A stretch of DNA of 64,000 nucleotides, taken from the NCBI GenBank assembly GCA_964394645.1, contig CAYMYC010000001.1, positions 479,359 through 543,358 on the forward strand, in the 5' to 3' direction. Position 1 is the first letter of the stretch. The number at the start of each line of letters is the position of its first letter. Below, piece by piece: positions 2,934-64,000 of this stretch. A program made the position numbers and the translations under genes. The notes beneath the pieces were generated by a model. The model was not told where the DNA came from. It saw only the letters and a list, made by a program, of their open reading frames with translations, and searched no databases. Source of the DNA: an uncultured Gammaproteobacteria bacterium. GTDB lineage: Bacteria > Patescibacteriota > Microgenomatia > Levybacterales > GWA1-39-11.

Positions 2934-3290
2934 TTATAGTTCTTCTTCTATCTCTTCTGCAAGTTTTTCAATTTTAGATTTTACAGACAGGTCATATATC
3001 ATATCATATGCCTGTACTTTTAGTCCTGCACCAATTTTATTATTTATCACAGTTTCAATTTTTTTTCCAGAGAAAAGGGATGTAAGTTCAGATTTATCGT
3101 TTTTTGATAATTCATCTGCGCTCGTAATCCTCATAGTCACTTTTTCTTCTTCAAGTAGCATTATTTCCATAAGTTCTCTCAATTCCTTTGGTGCTAGAAT
3201 TTTGGTAAGGCGTTCTGATTGAGTTTTTGATATGCCCCCGTTCTGTGCAATAGTTCTTGCTAAGTTTTTAAGTAAGTATGTATTTTTCAT
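2934..3290 (-). CDS. atpH: F0F1 ATP synthase delta (OSCP) subunit, short form
   Basis: 118 aa located between atpF and atpA, overlapping the atpF stop by 4 nt. The C-terminal region is OSCP-like (GAGLKVQAYDMIYDLSVKSKIEKL). Confidence 0.6.
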   Translation of the reverse strand: MKNTYLLKNLARTIAQNGGISKTQSERLTKILAPKELRELMEIMLLEEEKVTMRITSADELSKNDKSELTSLFSGKKIETVINNKIGAGLKVQAYDMIYDLSVKSKIEKLAEEIEEEL

Positions 3291-3790
3291 TCTGTTTCTT
3301 TGAGAACTTTTATACTTCTTGTAAGTATCTTATCTCGCTCATCTTTCGTAAACATCTTTTCCATTACTTTTTCAAGAAGCGCTAGAGAATTATCTAAAGA
3401 TGCTTTTTTGGCTCTTTTTTCCATGTCCTCCATTTGTAGATCGGCTTGTTTTTTAGCCTCCAAAATAATCTTTTCAGATTCGTTTTTAGTCTCTGTTAAT
3501 ATTTTTTCGCGTAACAAATCCGCAGTCTTCTTTGTTTCTTCAAGAATATGCTCAGCCTCACGTCCTGCCTTTGTGATAATTGCCTCTTTTTGTGCTTCAG
3601 CACTTTCCCTATCTCTGGCTGCCATCTCAGCATCCTTTAAGCCTTTTTCAATTGTGTGTTTTCGGTCAGACAAGACCTTCAAAATAGGTTTATAAAGAAA
3701 CTTTTTAAAAATTAAGGCAAGTATTAAAAAGTTTACTATTTGTGCAATAAATAAAACTGGTTCAAATCCGAATTGATTTAATATTTCCAT
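3287..3790 (-). CDS. atpF: F0F1 ATP synthase subunit b
   Basis: 167 aa with an N-terminal TM helix and a long charged coiled coil. It occupies the canonical operon position. Confidence 0.85.
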   Translation of the reverse strand: MEILNQFGFEPVLFIAQIVNFLILALIFKKFLYKPILKVLSDRKHTIEKGLKDAEMAARDRESAEAQKEAIITKAGREAEHILEETKKTADLLREKILTETKNESEKIILEAKKQADLQMEDMEKRAKKASLDNSLALLEKVMEKMFTKDERDKILTRSIKVLKETE

Positions 3791-32837: not shown

Positions 32838-33031
32838 TAAGCAATAAAAATGTCAATAGGTTGAGAGTTATCTCTGTTTGTATAAACACATATAAGAAAT
32901 TTGGATCAACTTGGCCACATGTTCCACTCATGGATTTTAAATTCAGCCCAATGGGTATGGAACACTTTTAGCCTTAAATAATTTACTGAGGAAAATGAAG
33001 CTAAGTTATTTGGCCTTGAATTTTTGATTTG

Positions 33032-33103
33032 TGATCCGGCAGGGGCTCGAACCCTGAACCAAAAGCTTAAAAGGCTTTTGCTCTACCATTGAGCTACCGG
33101 ACC
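33032..33103 (-). tRNA. tRNA-Lys(TTT)
   Basis: The reverse complement folds as follows. Acceptor GGTCCGG/CCGGATC, D arm GCTC-AATGGTA-GAGC, anticodon stem AAAGC/GCTTT with loop CTTTTAA, T arm CAGGG-TTCGAGC-CCCTG. Confidence 0.85.
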
Positions 33104-33292
33104 TATATTCAAGAATATACTTGAATGTATGAAATTTTACCAGATTGTATGTGCTTAAATCAATCGTGAGCGTACAGTGACAATTTAGTTAAAAAATCAA
33201 GTCTATGCGGCTAAAATTCTAACAGAAATGTTTAATAATCCTCAGAATTGAGTTTTGGTCTTAAAATTCGTATAATTGTATGGTCACTTTAT

Positions 33293-33366
33293 GGCGCCAT
33301 CGTCTAGTGGCCTAGGACCCGACGTTTTCAGCGTCGTGATCAGGGGTTCGAATCCCCTTGGCGTCA
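33293..33366 (+). tRNA. tRNA-Glu(TTC)
   Basis: Acceptor GGCGCCA/TGGCGTC, D arm GTCT-AGTGGCCTA-GGAC, anticodon stem CGACG/CGTCG with loop TTTTCAG, T arm AGGGG-TTCGAAT-CCCCT. A TATAAT sits 17 nt upstream. Confidence 0.85.
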
Positions 33367-33498
33367 CAAACATCTTATAGTTTGCTAGAGTAAATAAATG
33401 AGGTTGTAATCTGAAAGAGCGAGTTTGAAGTTATCAATTTCAGGGTCACTTAGATTTAGACTCTTCATATTCTTTATTTTTGCATATATTCTATTTTC

Positions 33499-58142: not shown

Positions 58143-58215
58143 GCGCCTGTGGCTCAATGGATAGAGCACTTGTCTTCGGAACAAGGGGTTGCGTGTTCGA
58201 CTCACGCCAGGCGCG
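58143..58215 (+). tRNA. tRNA-Arg(TCG)
   Basis: Acceptor GCGCCTG/CAGGCGC, D arm GCTC-AATGGAT-AGAGC, anticodon stem CTTGT/ACAAG with loop CTTCGGA, T arm GCGTG-TTCGACT-CACGC, discriminator G. Confidence 0.8.
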
Positions 58216-58232
58216 CACTATTAAATATTGAA

Positions 58233-58304
58233 GGGCGACTAGCTCAATGGTAGAGCAATTCCCTCTTAAGGAATCGGTTCGGGGTCCGAATCCCCGGTCG
58301 CTCA
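58233..58304 (+). tRNA. tRNA-Lys(CTT)
   Basis: Acceptor GGGCGAC/GTCGCTC, D arm GCTC-AATGGTA-GAGC, anticodon stem ATTCC/GGAAT with loop CTCTTAA, T arm CGGGG-TCCGAAT-CCCCG. Confidence 0.85.
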
Positions 58305-58361
58305 CAAATGTCTTATAGTTAGTGTTTTTCTGTATAATCTGCTATAATCCTCGTATACATT

Positions 58362-62320: not shown

Positions 62321-63257
62321 TATTAATGTCCTTTCCTATAATCTCAATATATGCTTCTTCAATAGTTGGCGTATGGGTTTTTATAGTTGAGAGTGGAGTA
62401 GTAATAGATTTTATCACCTCATACGGAGTTTTATTTTTAAGCTCTATTTTTATTTCTCCGTTTACCTCATATGTATACTTCTTCTTATCTAATTCCTCCA
62501 TGAGCTTCTTTTTATCTTTTGCATTTACTATCAAATAATCTTTTACTATCCGCTTTTTTATTTGATTAGGAGTACCATATGTAATAATTTTCCCATGGTT
62601 AATTATTGCAATTGAATCAGCAGTTTCTGCTTCTTCTAGGTAATGTGTGGTAAGTAAGATTGTAAGTTTGTCTTTTTTTCGAATTTCTGATAGATACTCC
62701 CATAAATTCTTGCGGCTCAAGGGATCTAGTCCTACTGTTGGTTCATCCAAAAAAAGAACTTTGGGGTGATGAATAAGAGACCGGATTATCTCAAGTTTTC
62801 GCTTCATTCCTCCTGAAAATGTTTTGGTAGGCTTAAATAGATCATTACCAATTCCTATAACATCCGCTAGTTCTTTTACTTTCTTTTTGTACCCATCAGG
62901 CATAAGTGTGTATAACGGCGCAAATGGATATACTCCATACAAAACAGCATGAAATCGGATATTTTCCTCTGCTGTCAAATTCAAATCAAGGCTTGGATTC
63001 TGAAAGATTATCCCGACACTTTGACGTACTAAGCTCTGATTTTTGTCTAGGTCGTATCCTGCAACTGTGATTCTCCCTGAAGTTTTAGAGAGAATTGTAG
63101 TAAGTATGGAAAGTGTAGTTGTTTTTCCGGCACCATTTGGTCCAAGGAGAGTAAAAAATTCACCCTCAGGTATGTTAAACGAAATATCATCTACCGCGTT
63201 TTTGTCTGCCTTTTTGTAGCGCTTTACAAGATTTTTAACTTCTATAGCATCTGTCAT
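62307..63257 (-). CDS. ABC transporter ATP-binding protein (ABC-2/DrrA-like)
   Basis: Walker A GPNGAGKTTTLSIL, signature SGGMKRKLEIIRSL, Walker B VLFLDEPT, plus a C-terminal regulatory domain. Confidence 0.9.
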   Translation of the reverse strand: MTDAIEVKNLVKRYKKADKNAVDDISFNIPEGEFFTLLGPNGAGKTTTLSILTTILSKTSGRITVAGYDLDKNQSLVRQSVGIIFQNPSLDLNLTAEENIRFHAVLYGVYPFAPLYTLMPDGYKKKVKELADVIGIGNDLFKPTKTFSGGMKRKLEIIRSLIHHPKVLFLDEPTVGLDPLSRKNLWEYLSEIRKKDKLTILLTTHYLEEAETADSIAIINHGKIITYGTPNQIKKRIVKDYLIVNAKDKKKLMEELDKKKYTYEVNGEIKIELKNKTPYEVIKSITTPLSTIKTHTPTIEEAYIEIIGKDINNESK

Positions 63258-63331
63258 TTTTATCTTTGGATTTTACAATTATAGCTAAAATTAGTACAAT
63301 ATACGAGTCTTATAGGTATTTTGATATTATT

Positions 63332-63375
63332 GCATCTGTAGCTCAACCCCGATTTAATCGGGGTCAACGGATAGA
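63332..63375 (+). repeat. Partial duplicate of the 5' end of tRNA-Arg(TCT) (acceptor and D-arm) carrying a 21-nt hairpin insertion
   Basis: GCATCTGTAGCTCAAC[CCCGATTTAATCGGGGTCAAC]GGATAGA matches GCACCTGTAGCTCAACGGATAGA at 63622-63644, with 1 mismatch plus the insertion. It then diverges, so it is not a functional tRNA. Confidence 0.7.
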
Positions 63376-63379
63376 ATCT

Positions 63380-63667
63380 ATGAAACCGAGCATGTACATA
63401 CTAAAAAGCTTGAGTAATAGATATTACATAGGTTCAACAAACAATTTGGTTCGTAGAGTAAAAGAACATATTAAGGGAAAAACTCGTACGACTAAGATTT
63501 TAAAAACTAGAGAACTTGTTTATCTTGAAGAGTTTGATACTATTGAAGAGGCAAGAGCAAGAGAAAAAAAGCTAAAAACTTATAAGAGTAAAAAGTATAT
63601 TGAATGGCTGATTAGTAAAAGTGCACCTGTAGCTCAACGGATAGAGCAAATCACTTCTAATGATTAG
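63380..63667 (+). CDS. Small GIY-YIG nuclease family protein (UPF0213/YhbQ-like)
   Basis: MKPSMYILKSLSNRYYIGSTNNLVRRVKEHIKGKT...LVYLEEFDTIEEARAREKKLKTYKSKKYIEWLI is the GIY...YIG...R...H...E core. The reading frame continues 46 nt into tRNA-Arg(TCT), and its TAG stop lies in the anticodon-arm region. The track ORF starts at 63266, but the domain begins at the internal ATG 63380. Confidence 0.65.
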   Translation: MKPSMYILKSLSNRYYIGSTNNLVRRVKEHIKGKTRTTKILKTRELVYLEEFDTIEEARAREKKLKTYKSKKYIEWLISKSAPVAQRIEQITSND

Positions 63668-63694
63668 GTTGTGGGTTCGATTCCCGCCAGGTGC
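63622..63694 (+). tRNA. tRNA-Arg(TCT)
   Basis: Acceptor GCACCTG/CAGGTGC, D arm GCTC-AACGGAT-AGAGC, anticodon stem AATCA/TGATT with loop CTTCTAA, T arm GTGGG-TTCGATT-CCCGC, discriminator G. Confidence 0.85.
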
Positions 63695-63736
63695 GCATCA
63701 CTTCGTTTTATGCAAGCAAAAAAAACCTGCATAAAC

Positions 63737-63812
63737 GGAGCGGTACGGTGGATGTAGCTCAGTGGTAGAGCGCCAGCTTGTGGAGCTGGATGTCGCGGGT
63801 TCGAACCCCGTC
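63737..63812 (+). tRNA. tRNA-His(GTG) with encoded G-1 and 3' CCA
   Basis: G-1 is followed by acceptor GTGGATG/CTTCCAC, which has one U-U mismatch. D arm GCTC-AGTGGTA-GAGC, anticodon stem CCAGC/GCTGG with loop TTGTGGA, T arm GCGGG-TTCGAAC-CCCGT, discriminator C73, then CCA. Confidence 0.85.
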
Positions 63813-63902
63813 TTCCACCCCAAGTTTTTTAGCCTCAATTTTATATATCGAACAACTTCACCCCAAGACAGGGTTCGAACTTCTGCTATACTAGCAATTA
63901 GT

Positions 63903-64000
63903 ATGAGGAAGATTATTGCCGTTGAATTTATTACTCTTGATGGTGTCATACAAGCACCAGGCGATTCCAAAGAGGATGCAGCAGAAGGCTTTAGATATGG
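63903..64000 (+). CDS. Dihydrofolate reductase family protein (RibD C-terminal-like), N-terminal 32 codons; gene continues past the window end
   Basis: MRKIIAVEFITLDGVIQAPGDSKEDAAEGFRYG matches the characteristic N-terminus of this family (…SLDGV.QAPGG…GGF.YGGW). Confidence 0.6.
   Translation, partial: MRKIIAVEFITLDGVIQAPGDSKEDAAEGFRY

Follow-up and report, generated by a model that had tools for sequence, protein, structure and literature searches.

A GIY-YIG nuclease gene between a hairpin-marked partial copy of tRNA-Arg(TCT) and the intact gene: a probable site of a selfish gene family living at tRNA genes

How does a small nuclease gene come to lie between a fragment of a tRNA gene and the complete gene, with its reading frame running into the latter? 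This question is raised by the tRNA-Arg(TCT) locus in a 64 kb window (the whole stretch of DNA that was analysed) from an uncultured bacterium. The first-pass annotation had explained the arrangement by the insertion of a small selfish GIY-YIG element, which was thought to have entered at the 5' region of the tRNA and to have duplicated part of it. We report that empty sites in relatives and further copies beside tRNA genes support this interpretation, and that the locus belongs to a large and apparently undescribed family of tRNA-adjoining mobile GIY-YIG genes in uncultured bacteria.

The intact tRNA-Arg(TCT) gene is found at positions 63623-63696 (ARAGORN; Rfam RF00005, 71.4 bits) and lies on the forward strand (+), as do all other features named below. 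Upstream of it, tRNA positions 1-15 recur at 63332-63346 with one mismatch (T4 for C4), followed by a perfect 17-nt palindrome, CCCCGATTTAATCGGGG, at 63347-63363, by TCAA at 63364-63367 as a repeat of tRNA positions 12-15, and by tRNA positions 16-23 at 63368-63375. This dead copy is split in its D-loop by a 21-nt insert made up of the 17-nt palindrome and the 4-nt TCAA duplication. The palindrome folds into a hairpin with either a 5-bp stem and a 7-nt loop or an 8-bp stem and a 1-nt loop, and folding of the whole leader as RNA yields the hairpin alone with an unremarkable z-score of -1.7. In terms of tRNA structure, the first 15 positions of the copy represent the acceptor 5' strand, the D-stem 5' strand and the start of the D-loop. 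A direct alignment gives two blocks, 63331-63347 against 63622-63638 with 16/17 positions identical and 63364-63375 against 63634-63645 with 12/12 identical, and as a chance control the first block alone outscores 200 of 200 shuffles. Both the 5' duplicate and its perfect D-loop hairpin had been recognized in the first-pass annotation and are real, only that 23 nt are copied and not about 30; the distance from start to start amounts to 291 bp.

The space between the copies holds an ORF of 288 bp (95 aa) at 63380-63667, which starts with ATG at 63380, stops with TAG at 63665-63667 and matches the GIY-YIG domain (Pfam PF01541), as had been annotated. It does end inside the tRNA: its last 45 nt, one fewer than first counted, are the first 45 nt of tRNA-Arg, and the TAG falls on tRNA positions 43-45. 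The coding overlap to which attention had been drawn is therefore present, but its length is incidental, as the stop codon of most relatives is located 10 nt into the tRNA, at U8-A9-G10. Downstream, a 51-nt spacer and tRNA-His(GTG) follow at 63697..63822 and serve as an unoccupied site of the same element family for internal comparison. On the opposite side a consensus scan revealed a promoter-like site, TTTACA-17-TACAAT, at 63272..63300. Its promoter function is inferred, and by the same inference it would drive the pseudo-copy, the ORF, tRNA-Arg and tRNA-His. The surrounding sequence (63259-63307) is identical in the window and in the related loci L001 and L002, and the same -10/ATACGAG motif stands immediately 5' of tRNA-Arg at the empty site L083.

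In the occupied window allele the intact tRNA is unchanged and the hairpin, whose core occurs a single time in the 64 kb window, alters the dead copy only. Neither ARAGORN nor Rfam calls the upstream copy as a tRNA, and Rfam holds no RNA family for this copy or for the hairpin. One out of the eight tRNAs in the window is occupied, and none of the 7 others is accompanied by a partial copy of itself in the 500 nt before or after it. The two possibilities that had been named as fatal for the insertion hypothesis, namely a generic promoter element shared by many tRNA genes and an upstream copy detectable as a functional tRNA, are hence not met.

The comparison with relatives, in which empty sites were reached via homologues of the neighbouring ABC-ATPase, reveals empty, scar and occupied alleles. 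In L083 the promoter-like motif is directly followed by tRNA-Arg(TCT) and then by tRNA-His, which is the single-tRNA arrangement anticipated for an empty site, and L081 is empty as well. L082 carries a scar consisting of the promoter, tRNA positions 1-13, 50 nt and an identical tRNA, without the ORF. The Arg site is occupied in the window, L001 and L002; the tRNA-Arg(TCT) sequence of these three and of the scar allele is identical, and the spacer that precedes the dead copy is homologous to the one that precedes the real tRNA in the empty alleles. The roughly 250-bp GIY-YIG ORF has come to lie between the complete tRNA and its putative promoter, and the original tRNA 5' end has been left upstream as a hairpin-marked dead copy. 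The neighbouring tRNA-His bears decayed copies in the close relatives L002 (a pseudo-His 5' copy with hairpin, an ORF-less scar) and L001 (a 5'-truncated GIY-YIG pseudogene), and has neither a pseudo-copy nor a GIY-YIG remnant in the window. Arg and His sites both exhibit presence/absence polymorphism at the same position in relatives, and a cycle of invasion, decay and loss can be traced in the truncated ORF (L001), the hairpin scar (L002), the scar of L082 and the second copies of L033 with their internal deletions. When metagenome contigs were scanned for exact matches to 38 nt of tRNA-Arg, none was obtained.

The 95-aa ORF matches PF01541 over residues 4-73 with E = 1.3e-14 and 54.7 bits (cutoff 22.6). 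No variation is seen at Y6, Y16, R26, H30, R61 and E62 among 26 diverse homologues (alignment A2); these residues, which include the two motif tyrosines, Arg, His and Glu, are by analogy considered to be of the catalytic type. Endonuclease activity itself is inferred. An AF2 model (pLDDT 81 overall, <50 for residues 83-95) and a Foldseek search support the GIY-YIG alpha/beta fold, with UPF0213 (1zg2), Slx1 and UvrC-N as top Foldseek matches (probability 0.96-1.0, weak E-values). The closest proteins are UPF0213, SLX1, UvrC-N and I-TevI nucleases, and PHROG returned weak matches to homing endonucleases. No NCBIfam family scored above cutoff (best 21 bits vs cutoff 56), PADLOC assigned no defence-system membership, and tblastn of the protein gave 0 matches in 50,697 phage records as well as 0 in the plasmid collection. 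Residues 1-82 form the conserved domain, and residues 83-95 are read from the tRNA; disorder is predicted for these 13 residues, which show no conservation. The rest of the protein, about 80 aa, is a catalytic domain on its own without a recognisable DNA-binding domain, so that sequence-specific homing cleavage is unproven. The ORF differs from L001 by 4 synonymous and 0 non-synonymous changes and from L002 with pS 0.236 and pN 0.011; as judged from these substitutions, purifying selection acts on it.

Related proteins are abundant, with 1629 clusters (50% identity) at E <= 1e-10, and their hosts are CPR bacteria and MAGs labelled as other phyla, among them many uncultured lineages. An intact same-strand tRNA directly adjoins the ORF in 142 of 160 related loci and represents 28 anticodon species, which confirms the expectation of further GIY-YIG copies beside tRNAs. 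It lies downstream of the ORF in 106 of these 142 loci and upstream in 36. In the first 80 loci examined, the far side of the ORF typically holds a partial copy of the same tRNA, and these dead copies match the local tRNA often perfectly (23/23, 29/29, 26/26 and 34/34 in the 80 genome loci); the figures are restricted to clean alignments, since gapped alignment with cheap gaps over-extended some copies. In the mirror-image layout the intact tRNA is followed by the ORF and then by a dead 3' copy, and 3' tRNA repeats are confined to this class. ARAGORN called the hairpin-bearing dead copy a tRNA in 12 Ala(TGC) loci, and the class counts were corrected accordingly. Target switching is seen in ORFs with 70-78% amino acid identity, which occupy tRNAs for Lys, His, Arg, Gly and Ile, and in ORFs with 86-90% nucleotide identity, which occupy Ala(TGC) or Ala(CGC). 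Several copies per neighbourhood occur in 25 of the 160 loci, mostly adjoining a further tRNA where one was called. L023 possesses two dead halves whose acceptor strands are complementary to each other and unlike those of the intact tRNA between them, and L017 has a perfect 26-nt direct repeat without a hairpin.

Across the family, dead copies are interrupted by a conserved hairpin of the size of an anticodon arm with the stem NNCCGAY/RTCGGNN, or have their arms replaced by it. It is located in the D-loop, the anticodon arm or the T-loop, and some hairpins are nested in the loops of others. The stem is conserved with compensatory changes (covariation), while the loop length varies from 1 to approximately 30 nt. 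The exact 17-mer CCCCGATT[AT]AATCGGGG precedes 40 related ORFs, which are distributed over 8 tRNA species, and is identical across ORFs of only 55-70% identity; among the window, L001 and L002 the pseudo-copy and hairpin show better conservation than the spacer next to them. An identical 4-nt duplication borders the hairpin on either side in 35 of 41 cases, and the segments on both sides are of the local tRNA type, also in subfamilies that switched their tRNA. On the strength of sequence comparison alone, the hairpin is a conserved module of the whole family and no accident of the window locus. An interpretation of the palindrome as a dimer operator was rejected, because the half-site spacing ranges from 1 to >20 nt while the stem is conserved. 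The idea that the subfamily with a D-loop hairpin chooses tRNAs with a special D-arm was dropped as well, because a listing shows no clean discriminator. Target-site duplications could be seen in the 23- to 26-nt direct repeat of the tRNA as well as in the 4-nt one that borders the hairpin.

In our opinion the locus is probably the occupied site of a free-standing selfish gene, similar to a homing endonuclease gene, that lives at tRNA genes; cleavage and copying are inferred, and neither biochemical nor transcript evidence is available. The nuclease would cut or nick unoccupied tRNA genes, and repair would copy the ORF from the occupied allele. The dead partial copy and the intact tRNA could act as portable homology arms, usable in any genome with the cognate tRNA, and the partial duplication would allow the element to occupy an essential and highly conserved target without destroying it. 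Transcription of the ORF may be provided by the tRNA promoter. As the stop codon lies inside the tRNA, cleavage of the precursor by RNase P would produce a stop-less mRNA and keep the nuclease low. The hairpin most likely breaks up the repeat or target, which would keep the dead copy from being cleaved or prevent recombination between repeats from deleting the ORF; alternatively, it may be the binding site of the nuclease itself. Two observations do not fit readily. The intact tRNA of the occupied allele is identical to the presumed target, which leaves unexplained how the host allele escapes cutting. Furthermore, the local type of both segments around the hairpin at different tRNA species is not predicted by simple co-conversion from a foreign donor and requires either that homing be mostly cognate or that gene conversion followed later.

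This local type on both sides, retained even after a tRNA switch, would be expected if the element moved in a transposon-like manner, a mechanism we consider unlikely but worth keeping in mind. A structure-specific GIY-YIG nuclease would nick cloverleaf loops on both strands 20-60 nt apart, the cassette would be joined, and fill-in would leave a long target-site duplication in the form of the partial tRNA copy; the hairpins would be element ends or binding sites, inserted into loops and leaving 4-nt duplications. The bordering 4-mers, the hairpins within hairpin loops and within the D-loop, anticodon arm and T-loop, and the hairpin-free repeat of L017 agree with this, and SLX1, a structure-specific nuclease, is together with UvrC among the closest relatives in structure. 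However, we know of no GIY-YIG protein with transposase or strand-transfer activity, and target duplications of 23-60 nt are to our knowledge without precedent. The window hairpin is present on one side of the ORF only, and the mirror-image layouts and mosaic copies (L023, L033) resemble recombination products. As regards hallmarks of insertion sequences, Pfam and NCBIfam revealed no transposase domain, and no terminal inverted repeats stood out among weak pairs.

One may speculate further that the hairpin-marked dead tRNA copy is a working part and not debris, the stem NNCCGAY/RTCGGNN being a handle bound by the 80-aa nuclease and its position in a cloverleaf loop the site of action. We rate this as a rather improbable conjecture. 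Two versions can be formulated: hairpin cassettes are inserted or swapped into tRNA arms by structure-specific cutting and joining, or the flanking tRNA-matching strands help to select the target. If true, no smaller self-mobilising nuclease system would be known, and its specificity would involve a nucleic-acid component.

The strong purifying selection on the ORF, together with a conservation of the hairpin that exceeds that of the ORF, would also be compatible with a function beneficial to the host. A domesticated nuclease, for example in repair or maintenance at highly transcribed tRNA loci, with the tRNA-derived leader and hairpin as a regulatory or processing signal, would further be consistent with the identity of the 17-mer among diverged ORFs, with a pseudo-copy and hairpin that are better preserved than the adjacent spacer, and with the size of the family. 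We nevertheless hold it to be very unlikely, as relatives contain empty sites, scars, truncated and internally deleted ORFs, copies occur in tandem and in multiples, the tRNA partners are of 28 kinds in two mirror-image layouts, and a single one of eight window tRNAs is occupied.

Little credence is given to targeting assisted by nucleic acid, in which the hairpin is a protein-binding handle and those parts of the dead copy that match the tRNA, in the form of RNA or single-stranded DNA, help a minimal nuclease to find the cognate tRNA gene. Compensatory stem changes with a variable loop speak for a folded single strand and not for a duplex dimer site, sequence that matches the tRNA surrounds the hairpin in every case, the protein lacks a recognisable DNA-binding domain, and dead copies remain near-identical to the tRNA. 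This support is entirely indirect, though: duplication at insertion also explains the near-identity, Rfam contains no RNA family here, and we are not aware of any guide-binding capacity of an 80-aa GIY-YIG domain. Chance similarity or an assembly artefact, conceivable given the shortness of the window duplication (23 nt) and the conservation of the D-arm among tRNAs, is effectively refuted because independent assemblies (L001, L002) and >100 other loci share the structure, the tRNA-specific acceptor strand is duplicated too, and the shuffle control is exceeded.

Being short, essential and almost invariant, tRNA genes are an ideal yet dangerous target for a selfish nuclease. The proposed selfish gene, resembling a homing endonuclease gene, would represent a compact solution, in which part of the tRNA is duplicated, one copy is kept intact and the other is disabled by a conserved hairpin, all within approximately 300 bp. 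The family accounts for many stray tRNA fragments and small hypothetical ORFs beside tRNAs in metagenome-assembled genomes, and warns that dead copies can be called as genes by tRNA scanners. It also provides a case, accessible to testing, in which translation would compete with tRNA processing for one transcript, and a minimal nuclease whose hairpin partner, DNA or RNA, is defined and conserved and can be tested directly in vitro.

In the searchable literature no description of a tRNA-adjoining GIY-YIG family was found, only analogues (SegB, fungal mORFs and CPR rRNA insertions). Islands and prophages that integrate at tRNA genes are kilobases long and encode a recombinase of the tyrosine or serine type; the part of the tRNA that they duplicate is the 3' end, and each of them is bound to one attachment sequence. 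The present element likewise keeps its tRNA target intact and has a partial-tRNA direct repeat at the far end of the insert. It differs in its length of about 290 bp and its content of a GIY-YIG ORF only; no site-specific recombinase is encoded between the repeats, where the 95-aa GIY-YIG protein is the sole ORF. Lacking a recombinase and with a window repeat that represents the 5' and not the 3' end, the locus does not correspond to an integrating island or prophage. Nor does it correspond to an intron-encoded endonuclease, as the functional tRNA is uninterrupted and Rfam detected no intron family at E <= 1 in 62900-64000. The nearest solved relatives, by sequence (E = 8e-7 and 1.3e-6) as well as by fold, are the UPF0213/YhbQ-type proteins (PDB 1zg2, 1ywl) and the SLX1 domain. 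They resemble the window protein in consisting of the catalytic domain only, with about 90-100 aa, and no function is assigned to them in the PDB entries.

SegB is a multi-domain phage protein of roughly 200 aa. This free-standing GIY-YIG homing endonuclease is encoded within the cluster of T4 tRNA genes, recognises a site to which a conserved tRNA motif, the T-arm, belongs, and spreads together with flanking tRNA sequence via gene conversion (PMC2330249). The likeness to our locus lies in a GIY-YIG enzyme encoded among tRNA genes and not in an intron, and in a tRNA motif in the target; a partial tRNA duplication, a hairpin module and a coding overlap with the tRNA are not described for SegB. 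The host group is shared by insertions in CPR rRNA genes, which encode GIY-YIG or LAGLIDADG proteins, sit at the tops or bases of stem-loops and, where they bear GIY-YIG, are not introns (PMC11270868). They share with the present family an endonuclease ORF in the gene of a structured RNA, but there the RNA gene is interrupted without duplication of any of its parts, and tRNA genes are not mentioned (PMC11270868).

The fungal mitochondrial mORFs are mobile endonuclease ORFs that give rise to hybrid genes with a displaced duplicate of a gene end, as reported for Allomyces atp6 and Glomus atp6, atp9, cox2 and nad3 (PMC3630166). Their targets are mitochondrial protein-coding genes in which the insert is in frame, as opposed to a bacterial tRNA gene, a 75-nt RNA gene; they duplicate the 3' coding end, whereas the present family duplicates either end; their enzymes are mostly of the LAGLIDADG type, and their duplicate has no conserved hairpin. 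Common to both is a free-standing endonuclease ORF in an essential gene, whose function is preserved by a replacement piece adjoining the ORF, with the displaced native piece remaining as a dead duplicate. The same logic can be recognized in L023 and L033, where native halves flank the intact tRNA and the ORF.

The first-pass annotation had described a GIY-YIG nuclease gene wedged between an intact tRNA-Arg(TCT) and a partial copy of its 5' end, and we find this arrangement present with corrected dimensions. The intact tRNA occupies 63623-63696 (ARAGORN; 71.4 bits with the Rfam tRNA model), and tRNA-His(GTG) at 63748-63822 begins 51 nt past it. A repeat finder returned two blocks matching the tRNA-Arg 5' end, 63331-63347 against 63622-63638 (16/17) and 63364-63375 against 63634-63645 (12/12), whose offsets differ by 21 nt. 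Base by base, the non-functional duplicate (the dead copy) reads as tRNA positions 1-15 (63332-63346, with T for C at position 4), a perfect palindrome CCCCGATTTAATCGGGG (63347-63363), TCAA repeating tRNA positions 12-15 (63364-63367), and tRNA positions 16-23 (63368-63375). By repeat finder and base reading the duplication therefore comprises 23 bases and not about 30, and the 17-nt palindrome reported in the D-loop is part of an insert of 17 + 4 nt. Four bases on, an ATG at 63380 opens the ORF of 95 codons (63380-63667, forward strand; Pfam GIY-YIG, E = 1.3e-14), which overlaps the tRNA by 45 nt, one fewer than had been counted, its TAG being tRNA positions 43-45.

Two readings would have undone this interpretation, namely that the upstream similarity is a generic promoter element of tRNA genes, or that the upstream copy is itself a functional tRNA. 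Both are excluded by controls within the window. Searching 500 nt to each side of the other seven tRNA genes revealed no partial self-copy, and only tRNA-Arg(TCT) yields a self-copy score above every shuffle. The hairpin core occurs once in 64 kb, as does a GIY-YIG coding stretch, and the upstream copy goes unrecognised as a tRNA in both ARAGORN and Rfam. The finding is real, and the proposal of a small selfish element that inserted at the tRNA and partly duplicated its 5' region is supported.

The encoded protein has a catalytic domain and no other. Its homologues usually measure 80-85 aa, with a C-terminus near KKYIEWLIxK; the last 13 residues of the window protein are the tRNA translated in one frame and are predicted by AlphaFold to be disordered. 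Tyr6, Tyr16, Arg26, His30, Arg61 and Glu62 are invariant in the homologue alignment. Among solved structures its closest relatives are 1zg2 and 1ywl, both uncharacterised UPF0213 proteins; SLX1, the N-terminal domain of UvrC and the catalytic domain of I-TevI come next. Purifying selection acts on the ORF: it differs by 4 synonymous and 0 non-synonymous changes from that of L001, the closest genome record and a Candidatus Levyibacteriota MAG whose protein is 100% identical, and by pS 0.236 and pN 0.011 from that of the related locus L002, other pairs being alike. The match to L001 places the host among the CPR/Patescibacteria, in the Microgenomates group. A profile search gave 1629 clusters (50% identity) at E <= 1e-10, and no similar protein was found in phage or plasmid collections. 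Among the database proteins from the profile search, P0121 (214 aa) and P0126 (205 aa) contain two GIY-YIG stretches per reading frame, presumably by read-through of two neighbouring elements, and in P0094 and P0118 the tail or head is a translated hairpin-bearing dead tRNA copy (PRLDRGQ, PRYNRGQ).

To place the locus in its family we fetched 160 loci with related ORFs (designated below by L and a number), 80 from species-representative genomes and 80 from metagenomes. An intact tRNA on the same strand begins at or just past the ORF end in 106 of them and finishes just ahead of the ORF start in 36; nine are cut by contig ends and nine are unclear. Altogether 28 anticodon species are involved. 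Among the tRNA-downstream loci, 73 of 106 ORFs terminate within the tRNA, with 47 using exactly the conserved U8-A9-G10 as stop codon. In the 80 genome loci a partial copy of the same local tRNA usually stands across the ORF from the intact one. It spans positions 1 to about 22-34 in the window's subfamily, often perfectly tRNA-identical, positions 1 to about 53 in other subfamilies, and D-loop through 3' end in the mirror-image class, where the intact tRNA comes first; at some loci dead copies flank the intact tRNA on both sides. By deposited record titles the family is mostly from Microgenomates and other Patescibacteria, with further labels of Omnitrophota, KSB1, Chloroflexota, Elusimicrobia, Acidobacteria and Verrucomicrobia.

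The hairpin is more strongly conserved than the ORF itself. Hairpins with the core CCGA...TCGG are enriched about 20-fold beside the ORFs, at least one being present in 72 of the 80 genome loci (~130 in ~38 kb of flank, against 55 in 373 kb of the rest of the same loci). A GC-rich perfect hairpin stands upstream in 88 of 93 non-redundant tRNA-downstream loci, compared to 18.5% of control windows. The stem pairs NNCCGAY with RTCGGNN and shows compensatory changes at the outer and innermost pairs; in a set of 32 distinct 17-mers, pairing holds in 98% of cells and both sides are altered in 18, values that none of 500 shuffles reaches. The exact 17-mer CCCCGATT[A/T]AATCGGGG precedes 40 ORFs located at 8 tRNA species; since the proteins of these ORFs share only 55-100% identity (median 68%), the hairpin is a selected module of the family. 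In 35 of 41 cases the two flanks of the hairpin carry one and the same 4-mer. The most frequent form, of 17 nt, has the size and geometry of an anticodon arm (5-bp stem, 7-nt loop), and at many loci it stands base for base in that arm's place in the dead copy. The window's subfamily carries it in the D-loop after position 15, and some other loci in the T-loop or inside another hairpin's loop; L017 is the sole locus with a clean 26/26 direct repeat and no hairpin. ARAGORN at times calls hairpin-bearing dead copies tRNA-Ala(TGC), and because the hairpin mimics an anticodon arm, annotation pipelines could report false extra tRNA genes. Such calls fell on the dead 3' copy about 220 nt past the ORF start in L120, L121, L129, L130, L132-L134, L141 and L145, with a replacement hairpin TCCCGATTGCATCGGGA of anticodon-arm geometry and TGC at the anticodon position.

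Empty alleles were sought through homologues of the neighbouring ABC-ATPase gene. In three relatives (L081-L083) tRNA-Arg(TCT) lies near this gene on the opposite strand, directly adjacent in L082 only. The single-tRNA empty site anticipated by the first-pass annotation is seen cleanly in L083, where tRNA-Arg directly follows promoter-like TAGTAAAATATACGAGTAA and is separated by 2 nt from tRNA-His; the Arg site of L081 is empty as well. L082 carries the window's promoter region with tRNA positions 1-13, then 50 nt and an exact match to the window's tRNA, and, lacking the ORF, represents a scar. The spacer before the dead copy is homologous to that before the real tRNA in empty alleles, so the dead copy holds the tRNA's original place behind its promoter. 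At the neighbouring tRNA-His, near-identical genomes display three decay states of a second element. The spacer between the two tRNAs measures 51 nt in the window (63697-63747), where the His site is empty; 126 nt in L002, with a pseudo-His 5' copy and CCCCGATTAAATCGGGG hairpin without ORF (L002:3318-3443; its ORF at Arg is 97% identical); and 193 nt in L001, with a 5'-truncated GIY-YIG pseudogene (L001:3318-3510).

Some further observations concern the surroundings. Within the intergenic region that separates the tRNA cluster from the divergent ABC-transporter operon, the window, L001 and L002 share 63259-63307 at 100% identity. This part is probably a shared bidirectional promoter region; about half of the next 24 nt (63308-63331) are substituted. 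An inverted partial copy AAGACAGGGTTCGAAC (63865-63880, 16 nt) lies immediately ahead of the next gene's start, 94% complementary to the tRNA-His T-arm stretch 63799-63814 and 50 nt downstream of it; L081 has a similar motif CACCCCAAGA after tRNA-His. Two tRNA pairs of the window are unoccupied, Arg(TCG)/Lys(CTT), 16 nt apart (58143-58305), and the divergent Lys(TTT)/Glu (33031-33367); the same tRNA species are occupied at loci of other Microgenomates (L007, L010, L016, L047 and L009, L014, L027, L088, respectively).

ORFs of the window's protein clade are found at Lys(TTT), Lys(CTT), His, Arg(TCT), Arg(CCT), Arg(TCG), Gly(TCC) and Ile(TAT), with 70-78% protein identity between ORFs at different tRNAs; other clades keep to one tRNA each, and the two mirror-image layouts are interleaved in the clustering. 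Ala(TGC) and Ala(CGC) carry ORFs of 86-90% DNA identity which have the shortened D-arm fragment and hairpin in common, while T-arm and acceptor strand are local. At L023 the dead 5' strand upstream (GGGCTCG) and the dead 3' strand downstream (CGGGCCC) form 7/7 pairs, and neither pairs with the intact tRNA-Val (GGATCCA/TGGATCC) that, together with the ORF, lies between them; an incoming tRNA-plus-ORF seems to have split a resident tRNA. In both L023 (1185-1670) and L033 (2855-3320) two dead halves of another tRNA-Val flank an intact tRNA-Val(GAC) and the ORF; over its 5' 50 nt the intact tRNA is identical in the two organisms, while its T-arm is local in each. This mosaic suggests that the tRNA moves together with the ORF and that gene conversion patches the tRNA. 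Of the 160 loci, 25 have additional copies nearby, most of which adjoin another tRNA if one is called, and tandem arrays were found at L033:3318-3385, L043:3308-3541 and L058:3299-3529. In these arrays the ORF restarts after the dead 3' copy, the second ORF of L033 being internally deleted. Several loci contain multiple copies within a few kb (L003 at 618-860, 3001-3267 and 3367-3570; L007/L089; L014; L088; L115/L135), most of them neighbouring a tRNA (Gly, His, Arg, Lys, Glu). In some cases a tRNA has a copy on either side, and the downstream ones resemble a more distant subfamily.

We infer a homing mechanism, in which the nuclease would break unoccupied tRNA genes and repair would copy the ORF from the occupied allele, the dead copy and the intact tRNA acting as two homology arms. 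As both are tRNA sequence, the arms would function in any genome with the cognate tRNA, whatever its neighbours. The duplication may also be what lets an essential 75-nt gene host the insert. The promoter scan gave no promoter-like site of the ORF's own; with the relatives it places the ORF behind that of the tRNA (63272-63300). With its stop codon inside the tRNA, the ORF message would lose that codon once RNase P cut at position 1; full-length protein could then come only from unprocessed precursor, which would plausibly hold a dangerous enzyme in check. As to the hairpin, we favour protection of the dead copy, by blocking either cleavage there or repeat recombination deleting the ORF; the clean tRNA-His site of the window may be a product of such recombination. 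That the hairpin is the enzyme's binding site is equally open. Homing does not explain what spares an occupied allele's intact tRNA from being cut, why the two hairpin sides are of local type after a change of tRNA, the base-for-base swap of the anticodon arm for the hairpin, or how an 80-aa domain locates its target. Owing to these gaps a transposon-like process, with structure-specific nicks at the cloverleaf loops and a long target duplication, stays alive, as does nucleic-acid-assisted targeting of the tRNA gene. An intron endonuclease is rejected, as the Rfam search found no intron, and the element is not an integrase island or IS.

The window protein belongs to no named NCBIfam family, and open-access papers and preprints yielded no description of GIY-YIG genes flanked by tRNA that combine partial tRNA duplication with a conserved hairpin, although earlier work was perhaps missed; the locus is one member of a large, coherent and apparently undescribed family. 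Non-intron insertions encoding GIY-YIG proteins are reported for CPR rRNA genes, in a paper that makes no mention of tRNA genes (PMC11270868). By analogy, the element would work like a free-standing homing endonuclease gene. The closest precedent is T4 SegB, a GIY-YIG enzyme encoded among clustered tRNA genes that recognises a site containing the T-arm motif (PMC2330249). A second resemblance is to the mobile ORFs of fungal mitochondria, where the host gene stays functional and a displaced duplicate end is left behind (PMC3630166). What is unusual is the partial duplication of a tRNA, the conserved hairpin of anticodon-arm size that disables the dead copy, and the stop codon borrowed from the tRNA.
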